A stretch of DNA of 63,973 nucleotides, counting the filler, from Hausera hauseri (taxonomy: Eukaryota), in the NCBI GenBank assembly GCA_046269625.1. It is 9 parts of 9 records of this genome, joined end to end, with 100 filler letters (N's around TTAATTAATTAA, not from the genome) between each part and the next. Parts side by side here need not be neighbours in the genome. Positions count along the whole stretch, not along the records: positions 12,602 to 19,518 come from JBJURY010051774.1; 8 more parts are not named here. One strand, written 5' to 3'. Under the pieces are notes generated by a model, which was given only the letters and a program-made list of their open reading frames with translations, ran no database searches and was not told the DNA's origin. Below, in pieces: positions 5,982-54,800 of this stretch (positions are counted from its first letter, which is position 1; each line of letters opens with the position of its first letter). The position numbers were made by a program, and so were the translations under genes.

Positions 5982-5984
5982 CGG

Positions 5985-7255: not shown

Positions 7256-7444
7256 CTTACCAGGATAGACAGAGGACCTTATGAAGTGATTAAAACTACA
7301 TCAACCACGGTTTATATAAATAAAAACGGCAAAGAGGAAGTCATATCAATTCAAAGAGTAGTCAAAACGGAAATAAGACCAAACAAACGCTATAATTTCT
7401 GTTAGAACAAAGCAAAATTAGACTATACAAACAAAGAAAAGTAA

Positions 7445-8791
7445 ATGTCGTCGATAGTGACTAGACCAATATCGTATGGACAAATAGTCCTCGCCTTATC
7501 GTTAATTGCTTTGCATATACCAAAGACAAGGTCGATAACCCAAACCGAAAAACTACAATATGGGGCAAGACGGAAAGATATCCAAAATTTACAATCGATT
7601 AGAGTGTACGACATGGACTGGAGCAAACCATGTGCGTGGTTCGAAGCAAGCGAACTTATTCAAAGCCACGTGAAATTTCAAATAATATTTTTAACTGGAT
7701 CCACAATGAGAACACGCAATTTTCCCTATGGTATTCATAAAAAATGTTGCGATTTGGACTTTGGACGAACCTACCGATACAGATTTCAGATGTTCTATCA
7801 TAATCAGCCCTGAGCCCAAGCCTATAGAATCACAGAATTCTCAATAAGTATGCCTTAGCGAAATGACACAAATCGAGACAAAACAGACGAGATAATCCGA
7901 AATACTGACCCATTTAAAAGACTCTTAGACTATAACATTATTGGGATCACCAAGGACTTAGAGCAACGATGTATTCGAATTAAAACCAAGGTGGAACTGC
8001 CCAGAGACAGACAAATTTCTGTCCGATTTATAACACTGGATGCCTCGATTCCCACTCCACAATATTGCTATCTGGCCCGACGACGACCTACGGTGTGCTG
8101 TGAACTGCAACTAGGACAAGAGTATCAGTTACAACTCGTTTTGTACAATACGTACCCCGGAGAACGAAGCACTTATTTAAGGGGATACCGTCCAAAAATC
8201 GGAATATAGAAGCTTCCGTTTACAACCACTACGAGAAAACCGTCTACTGTTCCAAGCACAACTCTCACTACTGCGATTGTCACTTCGGATAAAATACTCG
8301 GAAAAGAACTAGGGAGTATAAAGGTTAAGATTTCGGGAAAAAGTAATAGAATTCTAATTTACGCTGAAGAAACGTTAAATCAAGACGTCGAACTTGAATG
8401 TCGCACCCTGCAAACAAATCAAGTTATAATCGTACGAAAGAATAGTCAGGAAACGGAATGCAAATCGTTAAGACCGCAGCATAATTATATAGTCCGATTC
8501 ACCGCAAAGGGTAGGAAATCTAGGACTTTTACAGTACGAACTCCGGGCAACAAAATTGCGGTAATGCAGCATAAAGATCTTAGTACTCAAAATGCGTTTA
8601 CCACGAAAAGTTCTATCGAGGAAAACAAATTGCCGATAATAGCCATATTTAGTTCGTCAATTTTCGTTCTTATCATATTAACGACGACGATTTTTCTAGT
8701 TTCCAAATATTGTAATAAACGCACTAAAAATCGAGAGGGAGATAAGCGAGTAAAATGGCATCAAGACGGATTTTATGATAGCATAACCTGA
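7445..8791 (+). pseudogene. type I membrane protein with three FN3-like domains (B1), in-frame stops
   Basis: Signal-like YGQIVLALSLIALHI; repeats CCDLDFGRTY, CCELQLGQEY and CKSLRPQHNYIVRF; Thr-rich stalk; TM IIAIFSSSIFVLIILTTTIFLV; tail FYDSIT*. Confidence 0.75.
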
Positions 8792-8896
8792 CAATTATAG
8801 ATCAGGTTATCCTATAATCAGAAATAGAAAATGTTTTGCTTCAAAACAATGATCTGTCTTAGGATTAATCTTTATTTTTATTTTAGCAGAGTAAGT

Positions 8897-9980
8897 ATGG
8901 CCGAAAGGGTGAAGAACTCAGCACACAGTCTCAATAACGATATTGACGATTTCCTGTAGCAACACGTAACAGTTCTCAAACCTACAACCAAAAGCTTATA
9001 TCGCCAGATTGGAGAAAATCTAAAAAATAAAACTTATATAGAAATCAATCAGGAAAGCAAGATACCGAATGGATTGAAATGGGGCACAGAGAAAAATCAA
9101 TTAATCCGATTATATGCAGTGCGAAGCCCAAAAGATGCACGAGCATACCTATTAAGAGACATGATTCCATACGAGCCAACGCATCAGCAATTGTACATAC
9201 ATGTCGTTGATGGAGAAATACAATACGGGATCGTAGGACAATCCTGGAGTACTCAAAGTGGGCAACAATGGAAATTTAGTACATATGAGTTATGTTGCTA
9301 TAGCTTCATGAATTACGTTTTGGAGTTCAGAATCGCATAACTTCCAACCAAGCTTATGTTTGAATTAACCTTAAGAACAGAAGTGCTGAGGCAACTACCA
9401 TCTATATTGTGTATACAGAAGCCCTCCGTGGAGGAGATAGAACGAAATGGAGAATCATTCAGGCTAGTTTTAGACGGCAGGAATACTCGGATCCTAGCCG
9501 TAAACTATGGGGAAAAGGACGATGGATGGCATACTCCAATTGAAGTGTCTATCCGAAGTATAGATGGAGAAGAGATTATAAAAAAATAATCTCACCTAGA
9601 ACTAAAGTAAAAGATACGTTTCCCGATGTCACAGAATCACAAGGTTACAACTTGAAAAGGGCAAAAACTTCCTAGAAGTCCAAGAAGATATAAGCCATTG
9701 CTTGTATGGATTCATTGTGACCGGATTTAGAGTACACGAGATGTTAGAAAAACTAGGAATACGACAGGAGTATATAGTCGGAATTCGTGAATTGAGTCGT
9801 AACCCAACAGTAGTAAGCCGAACAGAAAGTACACTTCGGCATCGAGCGAATCACAGTCCAAGATAATGCTAGCGGCCATGAATGGTGAACAATCTAGATT
9901 TCCTAAATTAATGTCAGCAAGTCATCGAACGAGACTCATAAGAGACATTTACATCTCATTCTGATGGGAACACGACTGGA
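8897..9980 (+). pseudogene. accessory ORF: unknown N-terminal domain plus REX4/ISG20-like (DEDDh fold) exonuclease-like domain (B1)
   Basis: ORFs 9074..9340 and 9356..9589, continued manually: IEVSIRSIDGEEIIKK.ISPRTKVKD..EVQEDISHCLYGFIVTGFRV..GIRE..MSASHRTRLIRDIY. Confidence 0.65.
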
Positions 9981-10803
9981 AGCCCAGAGACCTATACAAA
10001 ACGTGATCTTTGACAGCAACCCAAAGATTTTATTGCAAAAATTCCAAAAAGGGTTTAACGAATACCCGATACATAGACAAATTAAACCTCAAGAACATAG
10101 TAGCTTCCAAATAACCATTCGGAATATTCCAGTCCAATTGCTCAAACAGGAAGGATCGAAGGGGAACAACCAGCAAGGCTTATCCACCAGCCATCGCCAA
10201 ACTGATCACGGACCGACCTCCCAAAAAGCAACGGAAAACTGAAACTAAACACTGGAGAACCTCATAGAGGACAAAAAACAAAATCCTCCTTCTTCGAATA
10301 TATCATTAGGAAGAAGAGTAAGACCAGCAAAAACTACCCCGAAGAAGTGAGACAGTCTAATAGCAGTCTTATACCAAGTATTAAAGAAAACGCGACAAAA
10401 CCCAAGGATAAACCAAAAAGGCGGAAAGCCGAAAATTCCAACGAACAAAAAAGGAGAATGTGAACTCCCGAGGATGAAAATAATTGATAAGAACCAGCCC
10501 CTATTGTAGTGACCGAATTCGGTCAAGTTAAAGAATACACCAGAGTGCTCGTTATGGCCGAATATTACAGCAAGGGCTAGATAAAGGAAGCCATAATCTA
10601 TGTATCCACTGTCCCTAGAAGAATTGTAAGCGGAAACGGATACGCCCGAGAAGACATAACCATTGGTAAATACCTAGCCCCGATATTTCAATCAAAGAAC
10701 GGAACAAACCATCTGACTATCCCAATGGAAACTCAAGTTTGAGTGCAACTTAAGAGATATCACAAGAGAACGGGAATACCCGATTTGGATAAACAAGAAA
10801 TCG

Positions 10804-11154
10804 TTGAATGGACGTTGGTCACCGTGTCAGATGACCCTAAGTAAAGCTCCAGACCCCAAACAAAAACGGCTATATGGATGCTTATACCAAGACAAAAAAG
10901 GACTAGTATTCGAGCGAATTGAAGTTGACGAAAATCTCGTGGATATGGACGGAGGCGAGAAAGAAGAACGCCCCGTTTGCGACGCGAACCTATATCAAGG
11001 ACTTGTGGTGTTAGATAATAAGGATTGCACCCATAAATACTGTCGGTATTGCTTGGAAACGTGGACCCTGAGAAATGGGAAGACGACCTGCCCAGTATGT
11101 AGGGCTGAAACTACGAGGTTGCGTTACTTCTCAAATGGAGAAAGTAAAAAATAG
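10804..11154 (+). CDS. RING-HC finger protein fragment
   Basis: RPVC-x15-CTHKYCRYC-x12-CPVCR; first ligand is Arg (CGC, one change from TGC). Confidence 0.8.
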   Translation: MNGRWSPCQMTLSKAPDPKQKRLYGCLYQDKKGLVFERIEVDENLVDMDGGEKEERPVCDANLYQGLVVLDNKDCTHKYCRYCLETWTLRNGKTTCPVCRAETTRLRYFSNGESKK

Positions 11155-11320
11155 TGGATATTTCCCAAAAAAGCTACTACATCGTACCACTTCGATTTGA
11201 GATCTCCACACGACGAAACAGATTCGGAAGCGGACTTGCGCGGACGAATGAACCGATTACGCGGCACCTCTTATGACGCAATGGGCACATCCGAGAGTAC
11301 CGTTTAGGGAGGATTAATCT

Positions 11321-11981
11321 TGTAAAAAGATCGAAAATCATAAATTTTATATATGTATATCAAACTGAAAATTAAATTGGCTAACCAGAATTAGTCAGTA
11401 AAATCGATTATATCCACAACTGTTAACTGGAAAATTCTCAGAATATTCCGATGAAATTAGTAAATGCATGCAGACAGCATTAGTTATTGGTTGGAATTAC
11501 TAGAAAAGTGGCTGAAAAATAATTACACAGAAATTGGACATCACCAACGGCTATATAAATTCGAATCAGTTAGAAGTCAAAGAAGAAAAATTGACGAGGA
11601 AAAAATTCAGTAACCTGTATTGACTAAAAAAGGACTTATATTCAGAAGTGATTCGATTCTACTGTATTGGCTTGTTATTCGGATTATGGGTATACTGTTT
11701 TTATTTGGTTAATAAATTGTATTTTCTAACACTCCTTATAGTTTTCCGTCGCTCCTTACGAGGAACTTGAACTACATTAAGGTTAAACTAAAATTAGAAT
11801 ATATAGTTAGGACTAGATTTTTGTTAACCGCAAGAAGTCGCACGCAGTACCAGTATTTAAAATTTAGTGCAATCATTCTAACGAGAACGTTAGAACGTAC
11901 CTGATCTTATTAATTTATTAATCGAAGTATTTACATTGTTATAGTTGGGTGTTTGATAGGACTCACCGTCAACTACTAACA
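11321..11981 (+). repeat. family B LTR (boundaries inferred)
   Basis: Purine tract AGGGAGGA at 11306-11313; TGT start; TATATAAA ~11552; AATAAA 11711; ends CA two nt before TGG. Confidence 0.6.
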
Positions 11982-12601: not shown

Positions 12602-15600
12602 ATGATATACTCACCAAGAGAACCTAAGAATATTGAAACTAGATCGACAGTTTGGGACAACCCAAGGTTAAAAACCTTCCAACATATTGAACTGCATATT
12701 AACAACCGGGAACCGCTAATTAGTACTCATAAAATGGAAGAACTGCTTGTAGAAAATAATGAATGATATCCAAACGAGGAGTTAAGGCAGTTGTCGGAAA
12801 ACATAATATCCGCCCCAGAAGTAAGAATAAACGGACACAAAATATCAGTGACTAAACATTCGAAAGTTGCATCAAACTGTTTTGCAACCGTGATAGAAAG
12901 AAGACCTTTAGCCAAAATCATTATTGAAAATTGGGAAGTTTATGCGCTAATTGATACGGGTTCCGAAATGTATTACATCAGAAATGATTCAGTACGTCAA
13001 ACGCTAAGAGGACAGTTATGTTCGCCGTCTACGAAAGATCCAGGCAGTACGGGAGCTTTTGGCCAAACGTCGAAACCAATGTTTAAATGGAACAAAGAAG
13101 TCCATTTAATTGGACGAACATTTCGGCATGAATTTGCAATCATGGAACATTTAACTAATGATGTCGTTCTAGGATGCGATTTATTGAAAAGGCTACCAAA
13201 TATAGCAGACGACTTACAAACAGGAAGGCTAATTGAGATTAAACCGAAAAGGGGCGTGAAGAACGCTAAGGATAGAAAATTCGGGGAAGTGTGGATACCA
13301 GTAGACAAGAACATTCCGCCGAGTACGGAGATAATAATGTACGCACAGATTCAGAAAAATGACGATCAGCCAGTATATTTTGAGCCAAGGGAAACGTTAA
13401 ATCCTTATATAACACTCAGTAATGTACTAACAAAAGTACACTCCGGTCGTGTACCAATTAGAATAGCTAATAACGCGCAGACTCCTGTCAAGCTCCATGC
13501 TTATACTACTTTAAGAGACACGTATAGAGTATTGTCGATAACTATCGAAGAAAAACCTTATAAATATGCTGAATTTCCACCTCACGTCCAAACCAAGTTT
13601 TTACCTGAGTCTTACTGTCGGTTCTATGAACTATTGTTTAGATATAAATCGATTATCGCTAAGGACGAGGAAGATATAGGTAGAGTGAAAGCGTTAAAAT
13701 TGACTGCTCCGCTTAAGAAAAAGCCTGGTTCGAATGAAGAAATAGATCTGGAGGGTCAGAAGATGCCAAAATGGTACTTTCCACCACATTTATTAAGGCC
13801 TGAAATAACTAAAGAAGTTGAACGAATGCTTAAGGCAGATATAATTAGACCCAGTTACAGATCCTGGTACTCGCCTATCCTGATGGTTAAAAAGAAGGGC
13901 ACTACGAAGCACCGATTTTGTATCGATTACAGAGCTCTAAATAATCTTATGATAAAGGATTCTTTCCCATTGCCATCAGTGAAAGAGGCATTAGACCAAC
14001 TATCGGGAGCAAAATGTTTACCACTCTGGACTTACAATCCGGATATTGGCAAGTGGAAATAGAGGACGAAGATCGCTACAAAACGGCGTTCAAGACACAT
14101 GATGGAGTGTATGAATTTAACGTTATGCCGTTCGGTATTACTACTGGACCGGCCATATTTACGAGAATGATGAACAAAATGTTAATGGAATTGGATCATG
14201 CTTTTGCATATCTAGATGACGTAATGATAGCATCAAAAACGGAAGAGGAACACTTAAAGGATATTGAACATACGCTGATGCGTTTGGAACAAGCCGGCCT
14301 AAAATTAAATCCAAAGAAATGCACATGGGCTCAAAATGCAGTATCCTACCTTGGCCATATAGTTGGAGAGGGAGGATCCAAACCAGATAAGTCGTTGTTG
14401 AATAAAATATCGGATTAAATAGAACCACAAAATCTGAAAGAGTTGAGACACTGGTTAGGACTCTGCGGATATTACGCAACCTACATACCAGATAACTCAA
14501 AGATTAATGCGCCTCTATATTGTCTGCTTAAAAAGGGATTAAATGGAAATGGACAGACGTCGAACAGAAAGCCTTTGACAAGATGAAGAAGATATTTACG
14601 AGCGAACCTGTTTTACGGTACCCGGATTTTAGCTTACCGTTTATAATTAAGACAAATGCCAGTAAGGAATGTATTGGATATGAGTTAGCGCAGAAAAGAG
14701 AGGATGAAGAATTGGAACATCCGATTGCTTATGGAGGCCGTTCTTTGAAGAAAGCTAAAAAAAACTATTCCGTTACCGAGCTAGAGACTCTAGCCGTGAA
14801 AGAAGCACTGCGTCTTTTTAATGTGTATGTTTACGGTCAGAAAATTATAATCGTCACCGATCATAAGGCCGTTACAACCTTAAGAGCTGAGCAAATAACC
14901 TGACATGCAGACTATACAGATGGATCAAAGAAATCTCCAGATACAATATCGAATTCCAGTATAAGCCGGGAAACAAACATGTAGACGCTGATACACTATC
15001 GAGATTAAAGACTATGACAAGCGCAATCATTGTGTTGAAGAAAGGCCAACTTGAGGAAATAATAGACCGCCAACGCGCGTTAACTATATATAAGGCGATC
15101 AAAATTTCAAAAGAACAGAAAAAGGGTAATGTTATCCAGCAGATTATAGAATTTGCTAAGAAATATGTTATGCCAAAAGGACGACAGTTAAAGAAACATT
15201 TACACAGATATGAACATAAATACTGCGTCTTAAATGACGGGAACGAAGGAGGTATTCTATATTACGAAAGAAAAGAAAGGAAGTTGATAATTATTCCAAA
15301 GAGCTTACGAACCAAAGTATTGATGTCAGAACACGATTCATACTTAGCCGGACATATGTCCTGGAAAAAAACATTAGAAAGAACAATAAATAAATATTTT
15401 TGGCCGAGTATCTATATCGATGTAAAAAATTGGATAAATGCTTGCGAAGTATGTGCGACTAAACAAAAGAAAACGAAAAACTACATGGCGGAATTGAAAC
15501 CAATTAATGTGCCCGATAAATCCATGCAAGCTATGTCAATGGATATCGTAGGGCCTCTGCCTACGACCCACAAGAACAATAAGTATATCTTAACGTGTAT

Positions 15601-16390
15601 TGATTGATTAACTCACTTCGTCGAGCTGATAAAATTAATTGATCAAAAGACAGAGACTTTAGCAGAAGCAGTAGTAAGAAAAATTATTTGTCGATACGGG
15701 CTCCCAGATCAGATACTCACGGATCGAAGAAGAAATTTTATTAGTGAACTTTTCGAGAAGATTACCAAAATATTTGAAATCGAACGTTTAACAATTACTG
15801 CATATTATCCTCAGTGTAATGGAATGGTCGAACAGATGAATGCTACCGTCATACGTATATTATCAACAGTAGTCGCGAAAGATCAAAAAGATTGGGACGA
15901 ATTTTTGGTAGGAACGCAGTTTGCAATTAATACCACACCACATCCAGCGACAGGATTTACACCATTTTTTTATGATGTACGGACGTGAAGCCGTGTTTCC
16001 CACAGATTTTGGAATGATGCCATACACAGTCAGTTCCAAAGATTTAGAACAGAATTTCCCAAAAGTATTACAAATGCGGTTGCAAAAGTGTTGGGAAATC
16101 GCTAAAGAACTATCCCAAGAATATCAAGAGCAGTTTAAGAAACAATATGGTAAGAAAGCAAAACCGCATGATATAGAACAAGGGAATTGGATTTACGTAC
16201 ATTATCCGGTAGCCAAAAAGGGAGCCTCACTAAAATTGACTCGTACGGGTAGAGGACCATATGAAGTCACCAGAGTCACACCAACCACAGTGCATATGAA
16301 CAAAAATGGAAAATAAGAAATTGCGTCAATACAGGGAGTTGTCAAGACAGAAATACGACCCAGCAAACGTTATAATTTACGTCAACGTGA
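12602..16390 (+). pseudogene. pol: family B pol copy B2 (PR-RT-RH-IN)
   Basis: ALIDTGSE, RFCIDYRALN, LDLQSGYWQV, YLDDVMI, NYSVTELETLAV, HDSYLAGH..CEVC, MDIVGPLP, GRGPYEV, KRYNLR. Confidence 0.95.
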
Positions 16391-16399
16391 GGTAAAAAA

Positions 16400-17832
16400 T
16401 TCATCAATAATTACTAGACCAATATCATATGTTCAGATAGCCTTAGTATTATCGTTGATTGCCTCTTACATCCCAAAAATACAAGCACAATGATGGCACG
16501 ATAAATCTTCGTTAGGAGATATATAAAATTCGGAAAAGTGGATCAAAATCGGAAGTAGTCGAATCGGAAAAGAAACCAACAGCCGAAGAAATTCGAAAAC
16601 AAGAAGACACCAAATTATTACAATCATTGACAATCCACTATTATTCAGCAAACTCCGTATGCGTTGGATTTAAGACTTGAAAACCGCATTACGATTTCGG
16701 AAGGTTTCAAATTGTCTTGCTTGACTTAGCCACAAAAGCCACCAAAAATTGTGATTTGAAACTCGGAGAAAATATTCAGTGCTGCGATATAGATTTTGGA
16801 CACACGTATAACCTCACCTATCGTCTATACTTACCAGATTCATCTGAAGTTTATATTGAAACAAAGCCACATTCTCAATTAATCATTCTCGCATGGAACA
16901 AACATTATGAAGTAAAACTGAATGAAATATTACATTCTACGGACCCAGATATAAGAATACTAGACGAAAATATCCAGAGAATCGCTGTGAATAAGGACAA
17001 ACAATGTATTCAAGTGGACGCTAGAAGAGGATTAACCTTCAGTCAAAAAATTAGTATCACGTTTGAAGCAACAGTTGGACCGACTCCGAAAATAGACTAT
17101 TGTTCAATTCGAGCAGGCGTGCAAAACCCATGCTGTAAAATACCCGTAAACCAAGACTTCAACATAAGATTCGACCTATATGAAGTACGGCCTAATAAAC
17201 CAAGTATACAATTTTGAACTTACTACCCAGAAAATAAAATTTGGAAAATTTCGGCAGAGACAACTACAAGAAGACCGATAACTCAAGTCAATACCATTAC
17301 GGCAACCGTTACGTTGGCCAGTGTGCCGGATAGAGTATTAGAAAGCATTCCTATTAAATATTCGGTATATCGGTCTAAAATCGTGTTCTTCGTAGAAGGA
17401 AAACAAAACTACAATGTATACATAAATTGTCGGACGACGTATAATAATCAAGTGGTGACGCTATTTAAAAATACTTATCAAACAGAGTGCAGCTTATTAA
17501 AACCACAAACCGAATATATAGTACAAGTATTTGCAGAAAATAAACAAAATCAGAAGATTACATTGCAAACTTTAGATGCAATTCGCTCAGAATCCCATAC
17601 ATACGAGGACATAGATGAGCAGACCACAAATCCAATCACTACACAAGCTCCAATGGGATTAACTACGCTACCAATTGCACCTATCTCCATACTGTCAACG
17701 TTTGTTCTAATTACACTAATTGCGATTTTTCGACTAGTCACCAAAAACTGTTGTTCTAAGAGTCATAAAAATTCAGAATGGGAACTAAGGGAATTGGCGA
17801 ACCCCGTAGACCCATATGATAAGATAACCTGA
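16400..17832 (+). pseudogene. FN3-like type I membrane protein (B2)
   Basis: Homologous to 7445..8791; CSLLKPQTEYIVQVFAEN fits the FN3 LxPxTxYxVxVxA consensus; TM segment and PYDKIT* tail. Confidence 0.78.
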
Positions 17833-17841
17833 CAATTACGG

Positions 17842-18487
17842 ATGAGGTTATTCTGTCATCAAACAAAGAATTGGTTTTGGTTTAAAACCATCCTTTGTTT
17901 TAAGATTAACCTTTATGTTCTTTTGTTCAGATTGGTAAGTACTCAGACCCAGATGGAACCAAGCCGAATTAGTATCGACGCCAAGGAAGTTCCGAGCCGA
18001 CTTAGGATCGATACGGAGGAAACGACCAGTCGACTTAGTATCGACGAGTTCTTACAGAAATATGTGACAGTCCGGATCCCAAATTCAAAGGCCGTCTATA
18101 GGCAAATTAACACCGAATTACAAGGGAAGAATTCTGTTTCATACGGGAAAGTTGGCGAAATCCTAAACGGTTTGAAAGGAACGACTGAGGAGGCCAGAGC
18201 CGTATATTTTTACGCATGGAGGGAAGACAAAGATGCTAGGACATACCCCTTTAAACCGATCGCTCAATATCAACCAGATAAAGAACAGACGATATATGTG
18301 CATTTGGCAGACGGGGAAATATACTATCGGCTGAAGGATCAAAAATGGGATTCTTTCCAAGGAAGGCAAAGCCGGTTTAGTACCTTTGTATTTAACAGTA
18401 GGAACCTCCGACATCACGAATTGGAATTTCGCGTAGCTGCACGGCCAGTAAAAATGATGATCAAAACAACGGAGGAAGAAACAATGA
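17842..18487 (+). CDS. accessory ORF N-terminal domain (B2), truncated before the exonuclease-like domain
   Basis: IYVHLADGEIYY and ELEFRVAARPVK are shared with B1, B3 and B5. Confidence 0.65.
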
Positions 18488-19518
18488 CTGTCTTGACTGT
18501 TTTGACATCATTTCTATTTAAGTGATCTGTCTTTTTAATCCCGGTTAAATCGAAAAATGTTTCTCTTACTCGTTTTCTCTGGTTTATTATCCTAGAGTAT
18601 GTTTCTTCCCGAATATTCTCGAATCGAAACTTCGATTGGAATCTCATACCCATAATCACCTTCGCCTTGATTTATAGCGATGATTTGTACATTACGTCCA
18701 TCTTGGAATAGTCTAAAAGGCTGATCTAGTTCTTCCTCCTTTGGATATTGCTGATATTTAAGGTAGGTAACTGCATATAGGGTGCTTCTTCATATGTAAC
18801 CTCAAACATGAGCTTTATTGGCAGTGCAGTTATTCGAAATTCCAATTCGTAATTGTACAGATCTCGGCTGCTTAAATAGAGAGTGCTGAAACGATACCGT
18901 TTCCCTTTGTTAACATCCCAATTTTTCCCCATTATGCGGTAGTACAATTCACCTTCCGCCAAGTGGATATAAATCCCTCGGTGGTATACTGGTTCATATT
19001 TAATCATATTTGTTAAGGAGCATCTGAACTTTGTCTTATTGCATAAAAGCCTCTAGTCCTGTTTTCTTCGGTTGTACCTTTCAGGTGATTGGGGATTTTA
19101 TTGGTTTGATTGAACTCGACTAATGTATTTTCATGCATTTCAGTAGTAATTTGTTAATTTGACAGTAGATGGACTTCGATTGTGGTATCAGAACTGTTAC
19201 ATATCTGTCCAGGAAATCATTGATATCGCATTCCTTGATATCGTTGTTTTCGGCTTTCATCGTCATAGCAATAGTTACGCTTCTAAAAATAAAAAAATTT
19301 AAGGTTAATCCTAAAACAGATCATTTTTCGAAAATAGAACTAATTCTCTGTTTTCTTGGTGGAATAACCTGATTTGTAATTATCAGGAAATTTCATCATA
19401 GGTTTCGTCTCGGGGTGCCATTACCCTTAATTCTCTTCCTTCGATTTTATGACGCTTATACTGGCAATTTTTGGTAACTAATCGAAAAATCGCAATTAAC
19501 ATGATTTGTGCATATAAT
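18488..19518 (-). mobile_element. family B copy B3, inverted: membrane-protein tail plus accessory/exonuclease-like ORF
   Basis: Minus strand reads LIAIFRLVTKNC..TYDEIS*, then IYIHLAEGELYY..ELEFRITALPIK and FDLTGIKK. Confidence 0.8.
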
Positions 19519-27618: not shown

Positions 27619-30200
27619 TGTTTCGTTGCACAGACCTCACAAGCGTCCACCCAGTTTTTCACATCTATATAAACGCTTGGCCAGTATTACTTATTCAACA
27701 TCCTTTCTACACTTTTCTTCCATGACGTATGTCCAGCTAAATGTAAATCATGTTCTGCCATTAACAATTCCGTTCGTAATCCTTTTGGGATAACTACCAC
27801 TTTCCGTCCATTTCGTTCGTAATATAAAATATTGTCTTGATTCCATGCGTAATATTTGTGCCCGTGTCTCTGTAAGTGTTTCTTTAGCTGACGTCCCTTC
27901 GGTATTTCATCTAGCTCGGCAAATTTGACCATCTGTTGGATAACTATATCTTCAGCTTGTTCTGAAGAAATTCTGATTGTCTTATTTAGCTTTAAAGTTT
28001 GTTGTCGCTTGACTAATTCTTCGAGCTGAGCCTTCTTCATGGTAATACTTGTACTTGTTTTTGTTTTAAGTCTTGATAAAGCATCTGCGTCGACATGTTT
28101 GTTTCCGGGTTTATATCGGAATTCGATATTATATCGAGAGATTTCTTCGATTCATCGATTTAGTCTGCATGTCGGGTTATTGGCTCGTCTTTTCAATGTT
28201 GTAACAGCCTTGTGATCGGTAACTATTATAATTTTCTGCCCGTAGACATAGATATTAAAATTCCTTAAAGCTTCTTTCACGGCTAATGTCTCTAGTTTAG
28301 TGACTGAATAGTTTTCATCGGCTTTCTTAAGCGATCGTCCTCCATATGCAATTGGGTGTTCTAATTCTTCGTCTTCTCTTTTCTGAGCTAACTCGTAACC
28401 AATTCCTTCTTTACTTGCGTCTGTTTTAATTATAAATGGTAAATTAAAATCTGGGTATCTCAACACTGGTTCACTTGTTAGAATTTTCTTCATTTCGTCT
28501 AACGCTTTGTGTTCGACATCGGTCCATTTCCATTTGATACCTTTTTTAAATATCCGATATAGTGGCGCCTTTATTTTCGCATTGTTTGGCACATAAGTGG
28601 CATAATATCCACATAGGCCTAACCAGTGTCTTAATTCTTTCTGATTCTGTGGTTCCATACAATCCGATATTTTGTTTAGTAAAGATTTATTTGGTTTTGA
28701 CCCTCCTTCTCCATCTATATGTCCGAGATAGGATACAGCATTTTGTACCCATTTACATTTCTTTGGGTTCAGTTTTAATCCAGCCTGTTTTAACCGCATA
28801 AGAGTGTCTTTGATGTCCTTTAGGTGTTCTTCATCTGTTCTTGATGCTATCATTACATCGTCAAATTGTACGAACGCATGATCGAGTCTCACTAACATTT
28901 TATTCATCATTCTGGTGAATATTGCTGGGCCGGTTGTTATACTTAACGGCATGACGTTAAATTTGTAAACTCCGTCGTGCGTCTTAAACGCTGTTTTGTA
29001 GTGATCGTCTTCTTCAATTTCTACTTGCCAGTATCCTGATTGTAAATCCAGTGTAGCGAACCACTTCGCTCCTCATAATCTGTCTAACGCTTCTTTTACT
29101 GACGGTAGTGGAAATGAGTCTTTCATCATAAGTGTGTTCAGGGCTCTGTAATCTATATAGAATCTATGTTTCGTGGTACCCTTTTTCTTTACCATAATTA
29201 TTGGTAAGTACCAAGACCGATAGCTTGGTCATATTTTGACAGCCTTTAACATACGTTCCATCTCTTTGGTTATTTCGGGCCTCAATGAATGGGGCGGTGG
29301 ATACCATTTAGGCATCTTTTGCTCTTCCAAGTCAATCTCTTCATTGGAGCCAGGTTTCCTTTCTAATGGAATCGTTAGTCTTAGCGTTTTTGATTTGCCT
29401 ATGTCTTCCTAGTTTTAAACAATAATGCACTTATATTTGCATAATATTTCGTAAAACTGACAATATGCTTTTGGCAAAAATTTTACCTCAACATGAGATG
29501 GGAACTCGGCATATTTTTAGGGTTTTTCTTCGCTTGTTATTGCCGATACTTTATAAGTATGACCCAATGCAGTATTGGCGTACAACTTTAGGGGAGTCGG
29601 CGCATTATTCACTAATCTGACTGGTACTGTTCCTGTCGTTACTCTTGTCAAAATGTTACTGAGTATGATATTTGGGTTAACGTCTTCTTGTGGCTCGAAG
29701 TATACTGGTTGATCATCCTCTTCTTGGATCTGGACATAAATTAGCATTTTGGTTCTGGGCGGAATATTTTCATCGACGGGAATCCCTACTTCTTCCAGCT
29801 TTCTTCCTTTCTTTGTTTTAATCCCTTTCACTGGTCCCAATTCAAGTAGCTTTCCAATCTGCAAGTTTATTGCGATATTGGGTAATTGTTTCAGTATATC
29901 GCAACCTAACACTAAATCATCAGTTAATTGATCCATTACGGCAAACTCGTGTCGAAGGATTTGGCCCATTAATTGAACTAAGGGGCTGCATTTATATTTT
30001 GGTTTAGATTCTTGCCTGACGGCTCCTATGCTGCCTGGGTCTGACGACGATGTTAGCTGTAGTTGCTTTCATAGTGTCGGCGGTATTGATACTAACTTGA
30101 TGAACGATTTCTCTGATCCGGTGTCGATTAAGTCATAGACTTCCCAATCTTCAATGGTAACTTTTGTGAAGGGTCTCCCTTCCATAAGTGTTCCATAACA
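27619..30200 (-). pseudogene. pol: family B pol (B4)
   Basis: ORFs 30069..30665, 29517..29969, 28152..28952, 27687..28040; DLIDTGSE, FDDVMI, IKTDASKEGIG, HDLHLAGH. Confidence 0.93.
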
Positions 30201-30799
30201 ATTTGACACGTCCTTTGGTCGTTTAATTAAAGAAATCTTATGTCCGTTTATCGTTATTTCTGGTGATGAAATGATGTTCTCGGTCAACTGTTTCAGTTCT
30301 TCGTTAGGGTAGAAGTCGTTGATTGCTACGCTACCTGCGTTGCTTCTAATTAACGGTTCTTGTATTATTTGGTTTTGGAGCGATTTCATTTTTTGTGTTC
30401 CCCAAGATGTTGATCTTGTCTTTATATTAAGAGCTATTCTCTGCGAATACAATATCCTATGGTCATCTTCCGCTCGTCGTTGGTTAGTAATCTGCATTTT
30501 CTTCAATACTCCGTATTGTTTTGTTCCTTCATAAAGTTCCTCATAGCTAAAAGGTTTTCGACAGAAATCCGATTTGTATGACACCATAGGTGTTGTATCA
30601 CAATCTTCGCATATTGGAGCCGTTGGCGGCGCGATGGGCAAGTGTGTCTTGTTTACTGAATACATTTTATGTCTATTTTGTTTGAGGATTGCTTCTCCTC
30701 CCTTAGGCTCGTCATCATCGGAGACATTTCTTTGTTTTGTTAATTTCTTAGCTCTGCGTTCCGATAGAAACGTGGGTCTTGCTCGTCTTTTATAATTAT

Positions 30800-32650
30800 G
30801 ATAGCGACGTGGCGTTCAACGTCATTTTTCCATTGGTTTTCTTCGTATGCTTTAAGCATTTTGCCGAATGGTGTGATGATTGCAGTTAAAATCTTGCAGG
30901 AAAATCCTGCTAGCATGAATATTTTGTACCCGCTCGGATTACCGCTTTTACTAGTTGTACTAAGAAACAGATTGCTAAAAATCTAGATGCGGCTTGTCCA
31001 AAAATTAAAAATCTTCCACATATTTTGTAGAGTATTTCTGTGGTTACCCGTTGGTAATGGTTTACACCAAGTAAGGATTCCCATTTAGCCTGATATCGAG
31101 TATCGTCAACTACTGATGCCATAGCTCGATTTAATTCGTGTGTTCGTTGTCGTGGAAAAGCAAAGAATTGTCGAAAAGTTTCGATTTTTTAGGCCTGTAA
31201 ATACCTTTATGAGATGTATCCTGAAACTTGTCATCAGTAATTCCTTTTGCTAATTTAGTCCCAGTAAGTTTTTTAGGAATGATAGTAACGCCTCCATTAG
31301 GTAAGCTAACCCAATCTGGTTCGCTACGCCTAAACATTGGTTCACCCAGACTTGCCTTGCAATCCTTTAAGATGGTTGGTTGTGTCGCATTATCAAGCAA
31401 CACTTTAGTGAGGGGCATGGCTAGACGTGCAGTATTTTGGTATATTACAGGGAGCTCTTGTATGCATCGTTTTTCTTCGACATTAATTGGTACATCTCTT
31501 TTCTTGCATTCGTAGGTCAGTAGGACCTCGCCAGTAACTCGGCCGAAGATTCCTTCTCTTATAGGAATGATCGGTGAAGCTAACTCAATGTTCGCAGAAA
31601 TAAGAGCTAGTTTTGTCCTCATAATTTCCGTATCTAATTTATAGTCGTTGGTTATCATTTAATGATATAACTCGGTTATTCCGATTTGTCCTTTATAATC
31701 GTCTCGGTTTTTCAGATAATCTTCGATTCTAATGTCTTGCGTTTTTAAGTTGTAGGTTTTCGCGCTTATCTCCGTTTCTGCGACGAAGAACGCTTCGTAG
31801 TTAGTGGTGAACATTACTACTTCGCAACATGAAATCGTTTCCTTTTTATGAATTTCAATCCATGTTGATCAGAGATTAATATCGTAGGTGTATGATCCTC
31901 TGATACGTCTTCACGTGCTCTTGAACTGATGTCGGATTTGTCTACGTATCGTTTCACGGTAGTTTCATTAAATTTCAATTCCTTAATTTTAATAAAATTA
32001 CAACCTTTTCCAGCGGGCGGTTCCCATTTGACGATCGAACTTCTGAAAGCACAGGTTCCGTCCTGTATATGACATTTTTGATTATCGGTATATAGCTTAG
32101 TGACGCTATGGAACATCACTTTCTAGACTTGCATTTATGATTTGTAAAAGTCTACTACTACTACGTTTGCTTCCAGGCCCTTTCCAGTGTTGTATTTTTC
32201 TCCACTACGGTGCCCGTTATGCATATCTAACCTTCCACCTACTACCTTGTATTCCGTAATTATCTTTCCAGGCTGCATTTCTAGTTCCATACTATCCCAT
32301 TTCAATCTTCCGGTTTCTCTGGCCTGCTTGCAGTGTTGCCTTTTCTAATTTATTTGGATTGGATGGGTTGTTGGTTTAATTATTGAGGAGTGCCCATGCA
32401 TTATCCCACAGTGAAAAATCCTACGAGATCGTCTCAGCATACATTCCATGCCATCCAAAGATATCAACTCTTGTTGTTGATACAGGAAATAACTCTTCTC
32501 CTTTGTCTCAAATTTGTGTGGTCTGGAATCTCCGCACGCTTTTAAGTCCATTAATGAATATTTTTGTCCGAGCTTAAACCTATCACAATCGTAGACGGTG
32601 AGAGAACACCCATCTGTTTTATTAGCATCATTATAGTGAGTAGGCTGATT
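30800..32650 (-). pseudogene. env: chuvirus-like (class III) fusion glycoprotein / env
   Basis: In order: TVYDC..SLMDLKAC, RRIFHCGIMHGHSS, CHIQDGTC..VKW..C, GEVLLTYEC, CIQELPV..PLTKVL..C..PMF..W, GIY, then TM FLIFGQAASRFLAICFLVQLV. Order and spacing match chuviral glycoprotein motifs (YDC, CGMHSH, GEV..C, CY.ELPV). Confidence 0.8.
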
Positions 32651-33936
32651 AACCAACTGGATTCATTCTTTCGGTTGTTATTATCCGTTGTCGTCAAGTT
32701 CCGTATGATATCTCCTAGTCCATTATTACTGTTCCTATTATCTTTTTCCTTGTCAAATAATTTTAGCCAATTTATCTCATACGGAAGCTTTCTAGCTGCT
32801 TTTCGTGCCAAGCTTGTAGCTCGGTTCAGTTCATTCTCTCGAATTGAATTTGTCTTGATCGCCAAGTACAATAATACTTTTCTTAGCTCTTCTATCATAT
32901 GTTCCACCATAATTTTCTCAACTACTGCATTGTCAGTTAGGCTACTTTTTGGCAATTTGAAACGCGAACTTCTCGTTGTCCTGGCTGCGTTGAATATCGC
33001 CTTTTCTTTCTCATCTAATATATCGCCGCGAAGACTTGAATAGTTTACAATATGTATTAGGTTCTTCATTAACTCGTTTAACTCTTCATTGTCGGTGCTA
33101 AAAGTATGGATTGACATCTGTCTTAACTCTCTTATCTGTTTTCCATTATAGTCAATTTCTTCTAGGGGCTTTCTAGGTCTGCCGACTGGGCGTTTCGGTC
33201 TTGGAGCATTATCTGGTATTCCACTTAGCGGTACTAGATTCTTGTCGTATTGTTCCTTGTCTTCGAAATACATTGCCGCATCTCGTACACCCATGATTTT
33301 TCCTACGCACTGTTCCGTTTTAGCCTTCCGCGTGACTTCTTTTTTTGTTTGTTTATTTGCTAGCGTTACTACTATTCGATTTATTTCGTCGGGGATGATT
33401 CCTACGTCTATTAATTGTTCTAAATCGTCGAGTATTCTTCCTCTAAAGTAAAATCTGTAATTCAGTTCATTTGTTCCGCCGTTATTTAATAGCCATTCTC
33501 TTACGTCCTTCACGTAGGAGTGCGTGGTTAGCTCACGTTCTTTTTCGTTTATCCACTCGGATGATATCATTATTTTCATCGTTACCTCAGGTTTACCCTT
33601 CATGATTTTTGCATACTTCTTTATTAAAAGTTTCGGCACCGTGTTGTAAATTATGTTTTCATTGGATAACTTAGTCAAAGTTGGAATGAGTTGTCTGAGC
33701 TTATTTTCAGTCATATTCACATTAATTAATTCCATCAAGTCCTTCTCGGTTAACGCTGAGTCTAGGAGCATCGCCACATTGAATTTCCTGTTCTGCGGAT
33801 ACATTTCTGTTTTATCTAGGTGTACTGGAGTTACCGGATTTTCGGCCGTTATTTTTTCTAAATAATCATTCCATTCTGTTTTATTCCCAATATCTGGGAG
33901 TCCATAGTCTACTAGAGCTGTGTTCGTTCTTTGCAC
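32551..33936 (-). CDS. 461-aa polyprotein segment: ubiquitin-like domain, AT-hook, helical region, C-terminal signal-like segment
   Basis: [26 protein letters not shown] resembles ubiquitin [33 protein letters not shown] AT-hook; [12 protein letters not shown]. Confidence 0.7.
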   Translation of the reverse strand: [461 protein letters not shown]

Positions 33937-33978
33937 ATTTTCTTGAATTTCTTTTAGTCTTGGTTATATTTCTTTCAC

Positions 33979-36145
33979 CTACGTAGTTCGAAAACTTATT
34001 CGGTTTCCACAGGTATATTGAATTATTTTTAGTAGTTCGCATAATTCGTTAGAATTGATAAATCCCTTCTGGTGATAATCGGTTAGTTCGATGATTACGT
34101 CCCTTCGCCATCTCTGCACGAACTCTCGCTTATTTTTGATCTCTGATTCGGTAAAAGCGTATTTGATCCGATAGCTTTTAAACTCTTTTACCAATTCATC
34201 TAGCCTCTTTGCTCTTTGTTTCGTTCTGATGCACGTTTCTTCAACTTGTTGTAATTCGGGCATCAATTGCCTTATCTTCTCATCATTAATCTCCACCATT
34301 TCTACCAATAAGTAGGCTAGCCCATACATCTCATTTATAAATTTTGCGTCGGGATCTATTGCACCCAGCAATTTCTTTACGAACTTGGATTCTTCGACAT
34401 TAAGACGTTGGTTGTTTCATATTTTTGTCAAATGGGTCTGGCAATTCTGGTCCGTAGCGGCTATCCATTATCGTGGTTTGTGCAAGAATCTGACTGCCTC
34501 TATTAGGGCTACTCTATGTTCTGGGCAAATACCTAATGTTTCGATATCATGGATCGAAATCTTGTCGATAGGTTTCTCCGTTAAATGTTAAATTCCTTCT
34601 CGTCGGATGTTTCTTAACCTTGAGTAAAAATTTCAAGTCGTATTTCGCTTTTCTGTAAAGTTCGTTTCTTCGAAAATGTTATAGATTTCTTCCAATATTG
34701 TCATTTCTTGTTTCTTCTTCATAAAGTTTAATTGTCGTAATGATTCGAATCGTGTCCGGATGTCTATTTCTGTTTTTATGGTGTTTAAGTTACGTGTGCC
34801 TTCTTCTAGTTGAATTTTTACAGATGGTTCGCTTTCCGGAAATTCTTTATTACGGTTTTTTACTAATTTGCTTAATCTCGTTATTAGTTCGGACCATTCT
34901 GACAATTGATTGGCAATTATTGGCTTGGCTAATATTGCATCTTCTAATTCATCGTCTGGCTCTTTTATGAAGTTTATAAATTGGCTAACATAATTAAGCT
35001 CATCCTTATATTCGTCGAATTCTATGATACAAGCTTTTATTACATATTTGGTTTCTTCATTATTCACGAACATGATTTGATTTCTTAAACTATTGATCTG
35101 CAATCTTTTTTCATTCTCCATTTTGATGCGGCTCTCTAATTCCGCATATCGTCGGTTTCTGACAAAGGCAATTTTTATCATCTCCATTAAGGGAGGAATA
35201 TCTACTGGGTCTACACCCAATATTTCTAAATCAGTATTACTTCGATTGCTGACCTGTTGTTTTCTAAGCCGATTAATCATTGCATAACGTATCTCATCCA
35301 TTTTGCGCTCTAAGTTTCGGGTCACTCTTTTCAACTTAGAATTAGCTTTCAAGGTAGATAGCAGTGTTTGCGCTTCAGCGACTTTTACAACTACGACTTT
35401 TTTACAAGCGACTTTTACTCCACTCTTAATCCACGATTCTAATTCGTGGTTCCATTTTATCAACGTATTTCGTGGCGCCTATTCCGGTTGTTATAATTCG
35501 ATTGCTTCGTCTAGCTTCCCTTCGCTACATAATTTTAAACTTTTATATAATTTTTCCGCAAATTGTTGCTCTTTACCAGATATATCTGTTTGTTTACTGA
35601 TCTGTTTAAATCTCTCTAAATTGTGTCGGAATATCTCTGGATCGTAACATCTAATTCTCATTTTCTTTAATTCGTCGGCATTCTTCCATGAAAGTCGAAC
35701 TTTCCATTTTCTTGCATCCAGATAATTAATATCTTCCGTTTCTTCCTCACTAGCGGGAAGTGGACAGATTTCATTAATTTCGTCATTAACATTTATTATC
35801 TCTGGTGTTTTCAAGACTTCTGGAGTCCCTTTCTGACGTAACGAAAGTATCTGATGACGAGTCGTCTCTTAGGCTAGCAGTATAAAAATCTACTTTTTCT
35901 TCCGCGTCTTTCATTATGAGAGATCTTGAGTGAGTCTTGGATCTTCTCTTAGGCGATGGGCTTCTGCCTCTGTTCTTTGTAATTTTGAGGACTAAGGGCC
36001 CGATAAATTCACTTTCAACTTCATCTGTTATTTTGTCTGAGTTATGCATTACGGCTTCTAATTCTGTGTCTAAGTCTACATTTTGAGATGTTGATGGTTT
36101 CTCGGACTGAGCTATTCCTTGCGGGACAGACTTCTTACGTGCCAT
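33979..36145 (-). pseudogene. long charged/helical coding region of unknown function between gag and the Ubl domain
   Basis: Consecutive same-strand ORFs 35786..36145, 35491..35814, 34633..35463 and 33979..34371; the first is in frame with the Zn knuckle apart from isolated stops. Confidence 0.6.
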
Positions 36146-36399
36146 ATTAGTATTATTTGGGGCCAGTGCCTATTCTTCTTCGGTTTGTGGTTCTCTCAGT
36201 CCATGATAGACTTCCATTAGTCGTAATTTCTCTACATACTCTTTTCTAGCTTTTATGACTTGAGGATTAGTACTTTCGGCTAGGTTCCTTGCAGATCTAT
36301 GCAGATCTTGCATTTCAATGATCAGGCTTATATCACCTCGTTTACCCTAGATGGCTTCTAAATTATTTTTAATCATACTTCTTTTGTTTGGTTCAGTAA

Positions 36400-50335: not shown

Positions 50336-51274
<939 letters not shown>

Positions 51275-51826: not shown

Positions 51827-54800
51827 GCACCCTTATACTGCTTACTTAAAAAAGGAACTAAATGCAGATGGACGGACGTCTAACAGAAAGCCTTCGAAGA
51901 AATGAAGAAGATATTAACAAGTGAACCTGTTTTACGTTATCCAGACTTTAACTTACCTTTTATAATCAAGACAGAAGCCAGTAAAGAAGGCATTGGATAT
52001 GAATTAGCGCAGAAAAGAGAAGATGAAGAATAGGAACACCCGATTGCTTATGGGGGACGTTCTTTAAAAAAGGCCGAGAAAAATTATTCTGTTAATGAAT
52101 TAGAAACTCTAGCTGTAAAAGAAACACTTTGTCATTTCAGTGTGTACGTATATTGGAAGAAAATTATAATTGTCACCAATCACAAGGCCGTCACAACCTT
52201 AAAGGGCCGAGCAAATAACCCAACATGTAGACTTAACAGATGGATCGAAGAAATTTCCAGATATAATATCGAATTTCAATAAAGCCAGGAAATAAACATG
52301 TAGATGCCGATGCCTTATCAACATTAAAGACTAAAACTAGTGCGATTACAGTAATGAGGAAAAGTCAGCTGGAAGAAGTAATAGATCACCAACGCGCCTT
52401 AAAGATGGATAAAGTAATTAGAATCTCAATAGAACAAAGAAAGGATAAGGTTATTCAGCAGATTATAGAATTTTGCTAAAAGGGATATCATACCCAAAGG
52501 ACGGCAGTTAAAAAAACAATTATACAGACATGGACATAAATATTGTGTCCTGAACGGTAAAGGCAATGAGGATATTTTGTATTACAAACAAAAAGGAAAG
52601 AAATTAATAGTTAACCCAAAGAATTTACGAAACCGAAATTTTAACTTCAGAACATGATTCATATTTGGCCGGACATATGTCCTGGAAGAAAACACTAGAA
52701 AAAGTAATGAATAAATATTTTTGGCCTAGTATCTACATTGATGTAAAAATTGGGTAAATGCATGCGAAGTATGTGCCACTAAGCAAATGAAGACGAAAAA
52801 CTATATGGCCGAATTAAAGCCAATTAATGTGCCGATAGACCTATGAAGGCCATGTCTACGGATATTGTAAAACCCCTTCCTACAACTCACAAGAACAGTA
52901 AATATATCTTAACGTGTATCGATCGGTTAACTCATTTTGTTCAGTTTATAGCATTAATTGATCAAAAGGCGGAAACCTTAGCAGAATCTGTAGTAAAAAG
53001 AATTATTTGCCGATACGGACCTCCAGACCAAATACTCACCGATAGAGAAAGAAATTTCACAAGCGAACTATTCGAGAAAATCACGAAGATTTTCGAAATC
53101 GAACGACTAAAAACTACTGCATATCATACTCAGTGCAACGGAGTGGTCGAATGGATGAATGCCACCGTCATACGCATATTATCAACAGTAGTAGCAAAGG
53201 ACCAAAAGGATTGGGACGAGTTTTTAGAAGGAACCCAATTTGAAATTAACACCACACCACACCCAGCGACAGGATTCACTCCATTTTTCATAATGTATAG
53301 ACGTGAAGCCGTGTTACCCATGGACTTAGGAATGATGCCATACACGGTTAATCCCGAAGAATTAGAACAAAACTTCGCGGAAGTCTTACAAACACGGTTG
53401 CGGAAGTGTTGGGAAATCTCTAAAGAATTATCCCAAGAATACCAAGAGCAGTTTAAAAGCAATATGATAAGGAAGCAAAACCTCATAATATAGAACAAGG
53501 AAACTGGTTTTATGTGCATTATCCAGTAGCTAAAAAGGCACCTCATTGACTCGTACAGGCAGAGGACCGTACGAAGTTACCAGGGTGACGCCAACTACAG
53601 TATATATTAACAAAAATGGAAAGGAAGAAGTCGTGTCAATACAAAGAATTGTTAAGACAGAGATACGACCCAACAAACGTTACAACTTACGCCAACGCAA
53701 GAAAAAATCCTCCTCAATAATCATTAAACCGATCTCGTACGTTCAGATAGTTTTAGCATTATACTTAATTGCTTCTTTTATTCCGAAAACACAAACCAAA
53801 GGGTGGCACGATGAATCTACACTGAAAGATAATTACGTAACTAGGAAATGAGGAGCAAGATGAGAGGTTAGGAAAACGGAAAGAAAATCATCGGTCGAAG
53901 AAATTCAAAGGTCACTACAGTCAATGTCGATTCGCTATTACTCGTCCAACTCCACATGTGTTGGATTTAAGGTGCAGAAACCACATCCCAAATTTGGAAG
54001 ATTCCAAATCGTCTTAGATGATGTGATAACAAAGGAAACCAACAATTGTGACTTCGAGCTTGGAGACAACATGCAATGTTGGAACGCAGAATTCGGACGC
54101 ATTTATAACCTTACCTACCGTTTGTATCTACCAAACTTATCCAAAATCTATGACACAAGGCCACCATTTCAGCTAGTTATTCCTCCTCGGAACAAAAATC
54201 ATGGAGTATAACTAAAGGAAATGATGAGATCTACCAAACCAGACACAAAAATTTTAGACGGGAATATCCAGAGAATTTCGGTTAATAACGCAAAGCAGTG
54301 CATTCAGGTAGGCACCTGGATAGAGTTAACGATTAATCGAGAAATCAGTATCGGAATGATTCCGAAAATACAATATTGTTCTATTTGCACGGGTATACAA
54401 CACCCCTGCTGCAAACTACTTGTGAACCTAGAATTCAAAATAAAGTTTGACTTATACTAGATACGGCCTAACCGACCAAGTATACAATTACGAACTTACT
54501 ATGCAAAAAATAGAATTTGGAAAATTTTAGCGAAAACCACGACCAAAAAGATTAACCAAACTGTCACCACAAATAACATACCTAAAACAGAACTGGAGAG
54601 TATACTTATCAAATTTTCGTCCCATCAGTATAAAATCGTGTTCTTTGTAGAGAAGAAACAGAATTACGATATATACGTAAACTTTCGGACAACGCATAAC
54701 AACCAAATTGTAACATTATTTAAAAACACCGATCAAACAGAGTGTAATTTACTAAAACCGCAATCTGAATACATAGTACAAGATCATGCAGAGAACAAAC

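Follow-up and report, generated by a model that had tools for sequence, protein, structure and literature searches.

The type I readthrough signal of tobamoviruses reads xxA-UAG-CAA-UUA-xxG in 105/105 sequences and has no extended RNA structure (PMC3159437). Benyviruses carry a local stem-loop after a 9-nucleotide (nt) spacer, and several UGA sites have extended stems 7–8 nt from the stop (PMC3159437). The type I motif works with each of the three stop codons in plants and yeast, UGA replaces UAG in reticulocyte lysate (PMC13517186), and the motif is reported to be active across eukaryotes and with UGA (PMC13517186, PMC9272376). In a 2026 review, all type I contexts listed are from plant viruses (PMC13517186). 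Known readthrough sites of retroelements separate gag from pol, or pol from an env-like open reading frame (ORF) (PMC2194720), and according to secondary sources the env-like ORF of SIRE1 is expressed by stop suppression (PMC2829016, PMC2194720). Providence virus is an insect-virus exception to the plant-only listing of type I contexts. Here we describe a stop codon of this kind in a decayed Ty3/gypsy retrotransposon family of Hausera hauseri (GCA_046269625.1). The window, which is the whole stretch of 63,973 nt that was analysed, consists of nine records with N spacers between them, and a whole element is present in none of the records. The copies that an initial annotation called B1 to B5 belong to this single family. 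Their polyprotein ends with a predicted membrane domain (M) at a TGA, which is followed by a conserved linker and by the coding region of a RING-finger protein (X). Programmed UGA readthrough that joins X to M is, judged from sequence, the likely function of the site.

The stop reads TGA CAA TTA (TGACAATTA) at 8789–8797 in B1, 17830–17838 in B2 and 55079–55087 in B5, all on the + strand, and TGA TAA TTA (TGATAATTA) at 19385–19377 on the − strand in B3, exactly as first annotated. It ends the membrane domain in frame in B1, B2 and B5, and B3 retains only the final M codons. CARYYA stands directly 3' of the stop in three of the four copies (TAATTA in B3). From base composition, CAATTA would follow any one stop with a probability of 6e-4. 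The proposed likeness to tobacco mosaic virus (TMV) was also borne out, with CAA TTA after the stop and a G ending the third codon, the tobamovirus pattern stop-CAA-TTA-xxG, in 3/4 copies (PMC3159437). The nine bases after the B5 stop, CAA TTA CAG, are the same as CAA UUA CAG of TMV (PMC13517186). Tobamoviruses, which are plant RNA viruses, differ in their UAG stop, the A at −1 and the lack of extended 3' structure, whereas this animal-type retroelement has TGA, a C at −1 (both in 4/4 copies) and a stem-loop.

The motif is kept although its flanks have diverged, as the initial annotation noted: 8/9 columns are invariant across the four copies, versus 19/60 just upstream. Counted without regard to place, the 9-mer shows no enrichment over the window (33 matches with at most one mismatch versus 36.5 expected), and its other two exact matches (52175 and 59381, − strand) are without such a context. 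One run holding the family, X1, was analysed as contigs. At 17840 it has a depth of 48,277 from 94 contigs, and the B2 base there is private because 48,234/48,277 of this depth reads otherwise. Summed contig depth, which is not a copy number, was 16,871 in the bin of the site, versus 6,089 and 1,696 in the bins beside it and 35,000–41,000 in the reverse transcriptase (RT). This peak indicates that many more family contigs lie within 80% of B2 at the site than in its flanks.

Conservation extends through the linker between stop and X. B1 and B2 share 68/93 linker bases (73%), versus 51–52% in the flanking coding DNA of M and X, where four-fold sites differ at 20/31 and 10/13. The third-position difference of this pair is 30% in the linker versus 59–65% in the flanks. 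Synonymous sites are near saturation between B1 and the other copies: four-fold sites differ by 58–87%, whereas linker identity is 63–73%. Tested against third-position identity, the linker conservation has a binomial P of 1e-10; tested against overall coding identity, the value is 3e-5. Consistently, blastn of B1 against B2 aligns only the stop/linker region and the integrase end. Variable linker columns fall 15/17/18 on the three codon positions, with no codon-position bias. These comparisons indicate that the stop/linker feature is real and under nucleotide-level selection.

The conserved stretch contains a predicted stem-loop 3' of the stop. The consensus of the four copies has 19 pairs in three helices and is 93% paired. 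Compensatory changes on both sides are found in 6/19 pairs (3/500 shuffles, at most 1 in slid controls), and conservation-preserving column shuffles never reach 6. The consensus energy is −7.8, versus −0.8 for column shuffles and −1.0 for the reverse strand, with 0/1000 shuffles as stable (z −6.4); only the sense strand folds appreciably. When each copy is folded alone 3' of the stop, the basal stem forms in every one (z −1.4, −3.5, −2.5 and −2.2 in B1, B2, B3 and B5). The stem begins 10–12 nt after the stop in the four folds, and the hexamer after the stop is single-stranded in the consensus fold. The 3' arm of this basal stem includes a TTAAC-like motif, which resembles a branch point. No Rfam family fits the RNA element (best E 0.55), and its covariance model recovered only the four training copies. 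A selenocysteine insertion sequence (SECIS) was dropped by eye, the folds having no GA quartet partner.

A 9-bp hairpin over the stop had been proposed for B1. This hairpin is present (ATAACCTGA/TCAGGTTAT) and its consensus is 86% paired, but it has 0 compensatory pairs and the 3' stem-loop is the better supported structure. The two share one arm and are mutually exclusive. In free-RNA folding the upstream hairpin is favoured in B1, B3 and B5 (0.89, 0.76 and 0.67) and the downstream stem in B2 (0.80). When the ribosome-covered part was masked, the downstream stem formed in 4/4 copies.

About 100 nt of 3' conservation with a covarying stem-loop is unlike the type I signals that lack extended structure. 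Signals of the alphavirus, furovirus and benyvirus kind have a conserved compensatory 3' stem-loop and raised third-position conservation, and both are also found here. The coat-protein site of beet necrotic yellow vein virus (BNYVV) likewise combines CAA UUA with a local 3' stem-loop, and there a structural protein is extended by a long accessory domain (PMC3159437). It differs from the present site in its 9-nt spacer and in a 12-nt stem without comparative support, whereas here a 10–12-nt spacer leads to a covarying three-helix structure of 70 nt after a UGA.

M was first annotated as a separate membrane protein. In B1 and B5, however, the 1,536 nt that lead from the integrase end up to the TGA are in a single frame, with scattered point stops only. 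M thus forms the end of the pol polyprotein and is not a gene of its own. Hydropathy of B1 and B5 predicts a signal-like hydrophobic start and one strong membrane helix. The B2 helix lies at about 17680–17740 and is followed by a tail of 30 residues with YDKIT at its end; this copy has one frameshift near 16490–16510. A signal-peptide-like stretch in frame after the integrase was noted at 16398–16490, 7445–7530 and 53700–53790, which implies that the surface protein would be cut from the pol polyprotein, as in RNA-virus polyproteins. A model of M from three copies (mean predicted local distance difference test score, pLDDT, 55) leaves the domain orientation unfixed. Searched against PDB with Foldseek, it matched tandem-FN3 chains (98 hits at E <= 0.001, best 1.5e-6), and a search of PDB with the M sequence gave no match. 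The M tail ends in YDKIT, YDSIT, YDEIS and YDKIT in the four copies. We take YxxI to be a YxxPhi-type sorting motif, and such a tail fits a genuine C-terminus of a terminated product.

Downstream of the B2 stop, 17833–18525 is open in the frame of the stop. The ORF annotated there (17842..18525) is thus in frame, but B2 is the sole copy with the ATG at 17842 in frame, and the ORF end at 18525 is not natural, since it lies inside the inverted B3 copy. B2 and B3 meet tail to tail at 18495–18525, where the start of inverted B3 cuts the X of B2; the X1 contigs closely match the B3 side. A representatives search of 1.84 billion proteins found two real relatives, P0001 and P0002, both singletons from ENA assemblies. 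P0002 is intact (870 aa) and aligns along the whole of the broken X region of B1. It has a C-terminal RING finger (E 2.6e-7), with which the X of B1 also ends. Residues about 246–345 of P0002 are DnaQ-like (PDB DnaQ E 1.5e-4, PolC exonuclease E 4.4e-4), and Atlas RNase_T clusters give 0.89 for this domain as a lead only. The Exo I glutamate is aligned to N and the Exo II aspartate to M in P0002, and the Exo I acids are replaced in all five covering sequences (P0002, B1, B3, B5 and P0001). Because of these replacements the domain is probably inactive as an exonuclease. The first label of this protein, exonuclease-like, thus describes a DnaQ-like fold, but one without catalytic acids and followed by a RING finger. 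In the N-terminal domain of X, residues 54–210 resemble a double-stranded beta-helix (VIA-align Z 5–7 to cupin/AlkB-type folds), which is a lead only from a poor model. The X model itself is of low confidence (pLDDT 38) and its Foldseek search had no match at E 0.001; the X piece of B2 had no Atlas match.

The linker ends in a pyrimidine tract (70–75% Y) and a YAG at +98 to +103 in 4/4 copies, resembling a splice acceptor, and a GTAA position follows. The distance from stop to GTAA is 102 nt in B1, 105 nt in B2, 107 nt in B3 and 104 nt in B5. The initial expectation that X follows in frame therefore holds for two of the four decayed copies, B1 and B2, whose linkers differ by exactly one codon, but not for B3 and B5. 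B3 has two extra bases and B5 one fewer in an A run, at different places, and 2/3 of the linker indels lie in homopolymer runs. From the GTAA position to the first ATG of X, the length is a multiple of three in 4/4 copies, with whole-codon variation only. In P0001 and P0002 the frame of X stays open upstream of the acceptor-like position, over about 22 and 17 codons respectively, and both preserve the R/K-x-N/A...R/K-x-V-S spacing. B1, B2, B5 (in the frame of X), P0001 and P0002 all have 12 or 13 codons from the 3' arm of the stem to the V-S position. Among the X1 indels, none lies in the B2 linker among 12 of 18 rows. Five of nine X1 rows with letters have joints that touch the stop/linker region. 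The three joints that start after the YAG all change the length by whole codons (−66, −66 and −33), one that starts in the pyrimidine tract changes it by −67, and one that starts upstream of the stop (−227) is unexplained.

Taken together, the stop context and the covarying stem-loop make readthrough into X the best explanation, as first suggested, although the frame fails in 2/4 copies and a splicing alternative remains. The mechanism is of a known kind, in a new setting. The signal-like stretch after the integrase would thread three FN3 domains into the lumen of the endoplasmic reticulum (ER), and most ribosomes would stop after the cytosolic YxxI tail, giving a short receptor-like protein. 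The CAA UUA hexamer would weaken termination, the stem-loop 10–12 nt downstream would slow the ribosome, and a near-cognate tRNA would sometimes decode the UGA. Such a ribosome would then cross the 33–34-codon linker, a part without protein-level constraint. The product would be a fusion of three FN3 domains, a membrane helix, a beta-helix-like domain, an inactive DnaQ-like domain and a RING finger, with the RING in the cytosol and made at a fixed low ratio. If this is true, the retrotransposon equips a rationed share of its FN3 surface protein with a RING domain, an arrangement like that of host receptor-type ligases, and such a fusion could down-regulate host surface or defence proteins. The site would also be a natural test of hexamer and structure acting together in an animal-type gypsy element.

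Several observations weigh against readthrough. In B3 and B5 the stop and X are in different frames, and three single-base indels in about 420 linker bases exceed the 0.5–0.7 that the decay of the copies predicts (Poisson 0.012–0.034), the expectation resting on a hand-counted background of 10 frameshifts in 9.1 kb. B1 has two in-frame TAGs among 33 linker codons (P 0.046), and the −67 joint of X1 is out of frame. The base at −1 is C rather than A in 4/4 copies, and B3 has a tandem stop (TGA TAA). The 10–12-nt spacer is longer than the 7–9 nt of the viral sites (PMC3159437). The covariation counts are small, coming from four related sequences, which also served to derive the structure. Finally, readthrough alone leaves the conserved tract-YAG of 4/4 copies unexplained.

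This acceptor-like site suggests another source of X. The TGA could be an ordinary stop, and X could come only from a spliced subgenomic RNA with an acceptor about 100 nt downstream, either fused to a coding exon from further upstream or initiated at its own ATG; the stem-loop would then tune splicing by hiding the TTAAC-like motif in the 3' arm of its basal stem. Acceptor-like sites are rare elsewhere (6 in 20.6 kb of the sense DNA of the element), an X-frame ATG follows the YAG within 7–22 nt in all four copies (the first one in frame in B2 is at 17953), and in long terminal repeat (LTR) elements splicing is the typical means of expressing extra ORFs (PMC5408684). The linker without codon-position bias and the frame broken in 2/4 copies would also suit this account, and if the acceptor were joined in phase 2 to a coding exon upstream, the variation by whole codons behind the YAG would be accounted for. 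In contrast, it leaves the near-invariant, single-stranded CAATTA after the stop unexplained. An intron tract need not keep frame, yet the 12 or 13 codons are kept in B1, B2, B5, P0001 and P0002, and the last two are open upstream of the acceptor position. On balance splicing as the only route is unlikely. A YAG, four bases and GTAA[G/C]T also follow one another in three copies (8884–8896, 17928–17940 and, on the − strand, 19285–19273). This pair of acceptor and donor consensus sequences could be a micro-exon, a U1 site or simply R/S-x-V-S codons.

Splicing and readthrough are not exclusive, and a spliced route may supply soluble X beside readthrough. A bolder and doubtful possibility is that the 110-nt RNA element acts as a two-state switch between the two. 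As long as the RNA is free or nuclear, the upstream hairpin would form and release branch point and acceptor, so that splicing yields soluble X. A ribosome on the UGA would melt this hairpin, and the shared arm would join the downstream stem-loop, giving readthrough and a membrane-anchored RING ligase. If so, an animal retrotransposon builds a mimic of a signalling receptor with a translationally rationed ubiquitin-ligase tail.

It is improbable that the conserved stretch is some other RNA signal (packaging, export, internal initiation or reinitiation at the ATG of X, or an internal promoter) with the stop context carried along. About 100 nt conserved at the nucleotide level is far beyond the needs of a type I site, and two mutually exclusive folds with a common arm would suit such a signal. 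The structure is, however, strand-specific and starts just outside a terminating ribosome, Rfam offers no fit, and an ATG near the stop is in frame in 1/4 copies.

A frameshift in or near the linker, instead of simple in-frame readthrough, could also bring ribosomes to X. B3, B5 and the −67 joint of X1 put X in the same shifted frame, and the linker has A and T runs beside the stem-loop. This is nevertheless very unlikely: the indels differ in place between B3, B5 and the X1 contig, B1 and B2 are in frame despite being one of the most diverged pairs, inspection by eye showed no slippery heptamer before the stop, and a shift 3' of the stop would need readthrough first. Functionless common descent of the shared letters, with which the homology of the copies and the unenriched 9-mer agree, is hardly credible and already largely refuted by the covariation in the stem-loop and by a linker kept at 63–73% between copies whose four-fold sites are 58–87% different (binomial P 1e-10 to 3e-5).

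Compared with readthrough in retroelements, SIRE1, a soybean Ty1/copia Sirevirus, likewise has an LTR polyprotein frame that continues past one stop into an accessory ORF. The parallel first drawn with it stands as regards stop suppression; the SIRE1 stop reportedly has a CARYYA context. The present family departs from Sireviruses in its Ty3/gypsy order of protease (PR), RT, RNase H (RH) and integrase (IN), which Pfam shows in the B2 pol, and in the membrane domain before the stop, which is fused to the integrase. Unlike SIRE1, it has a predicted cytosolic RING protein after the stop and a fusogen-like gene upstream of pol.

A GAG-ENV-POL order is described in flatworms, nematodes and bryozoans (PMC13524379, with nine flatworm rows in supplement 1) and in the planarian element Burro (PMC6431247). 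Burro/GYPSM1 and the GAG-ENV-POL errantiviruses share with the present family a gypsy pol, a very long polyprotein and ubiquitin-system cargo, and the mononegavirus-related fusion protein between gag region and protease is also found in B4 (PF24664). Their polyproteins have 4,873–5,140 codons versus about 3,600 here. The Burro cargo (BIR, MATH, ankyrin, BCL2 and ubiquitin-like domains) had no Pfam or PDB match in the broken B4 pieces at E <= 1, and an FN3 membrane domain after the integrase and a readthrough site are unmentioned in the consulted text of PMC6431247 and PMC13524379. The fusion glycoprotein (31134–32662, −) and M together would give the element two membrane proteins, one of them a fusogen and the other an FN3 protein of attachment-like type. 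Part of a 470-aa piece of B4 (33300–33500, −) looks ubiquitin-like by eye, without Pfam or PDB support. The DEDDy ORF3s of the rotifer elements Vesta and Juno likewise place a DnaQ-like domain 3' of pol in an invertebrate LTR element, but they keep their catalytic residues and are described as separate spliced units (PMC5408684), whereas X lacks the acids and has a RING finger.

Literature searches did not find a CAA UUA context with a covarying stem-loop that ends the FN3 domain of a gypsy polyprotein and appends a RING, though Grohme 2018 or its supplements may hold this layout. Searches for LTR-retrotransposon readthrough with CARYYA returned nothing relevant; Havecker and Voytas 2003 and Gao 2003 may cover the ORF layout. 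Homologue searches with the X and M pieces of B2 among longer proteins found nothing. A profile search returned only P0001 and P0002 among 6,866 candidates of up to 1,523 aa and no fused M-X protein, which is weak evidence. P0003 was dropped as an unrelated bacterial repeat protein. No relative was found in scans of viral contigs, prokaryote genomes and metagenomes. An integrase scan gave ten distant gypsy loci on metagenome contigs (L001–L010), which have an env-like ORF after pol and are without M, X or the RNA element.

Table 1. Features of the retrotransposon family in the window.
Feature	Position	Strand	Support
B1 integrase end and M, one frame to TGA	7256..8791	+	frame check
B1 stop with its context, stem-loop, acceptor-like site; in-frame linker of 102 nt with two in-frame TAG	8789..8900	+	
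B1 X, full length but broken: beta-helix-like, DnaQ-like, RING (10717-11151)	8897..11322	+	Pfam RING E 1.1e-6; tblastn P0002
B2 pol region, broken by stops and frameshifts	12767..16316	+	Pfam RVP, RVT_1, RT_RNaseH, Integrase_H2C2, rve
B2 M: signal-like stretch in integrase frame, three predicted FN3, membrane helix, tail	16398..17829	+	
B2 5' arm of alternative hairpin over stop, pairs with 17843-17851	17824..17832	+	no covariation
B2 stop and readthrough-type context TGA CAA TTA xxG	17830..17841	+	tobamovirus pattern, PMC3159437
B2 linker and N-terminal part of X, cut at inverted B3 start	17833..18495	+	41% identity to P0002 over 18040-18471
B2 extended 3' stem-loop (70 nt), three stacked helices	17844..17913	+	z -3.49 alone; 0/1000 column shuffles
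B2 possible 3' splice acceptor (pyrimidine tract and YAG, end at 17930) and, four bases on, donor-like hexamer GTAAGT	17908..17940	+	
B3, inverted heavily decayed copy: M end, TGA TAA TTA, stem-loop, acceptor-like site, X start	18495..19475	-	
B4, 5' half of family: coiled-coil-like N-terminal region, fusion glycoprotein, protease, pol	27619..36169	-	
B4 Monjiviricetes-type fusion glycoprotein, upstream of protease	31134-32662	-	PF24664 E 1.7e-9, 1.5e-7
B5 integrase end and M, one frame to TGA	53546..55081	+	frame check
B5 stop context TGA CAA TTA CAG, stem-loop, acceptor-like site, X start; linker 104 nt, out of frame	55079..56113	+	

The window holds pieces of eukaryotic genes (Ufd2, MIOS, Myb and MFS) and two families of decayed Ty3/gypsy elements. 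In the family described above, B2 spans 12602–18495, DNA identity to the B2 pol is 75% for B5 and 71% for B4, and B1 and B3 match B2 in its 3' part. A purine tract followed by TG at 11300–11330, beside the end of X in B1, is likely a polypurine tract and the start of a 3' LTR; these were the only LTR-type features seen in the window. The second gypsy family, which has a Ser/Pro-rich tail after the integrase, occupies 1–5070, 41136–43089, 46829–50335 and 59789–63973, and it adjoins pieces of host genes for Ufd2 (5496–6014), MIOS (6205–6735) and a CDC5L-like Myb protein (50468–51064). ORF pieces at 44927–46945 look by eye like the DNA polymerase region of a Polinton or adintovirus-type element, and the two pieces scanned had no Pfam match. 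A piece of an MFS or acetyl-CoA-transporter-like host gene lies at 20727–21383.

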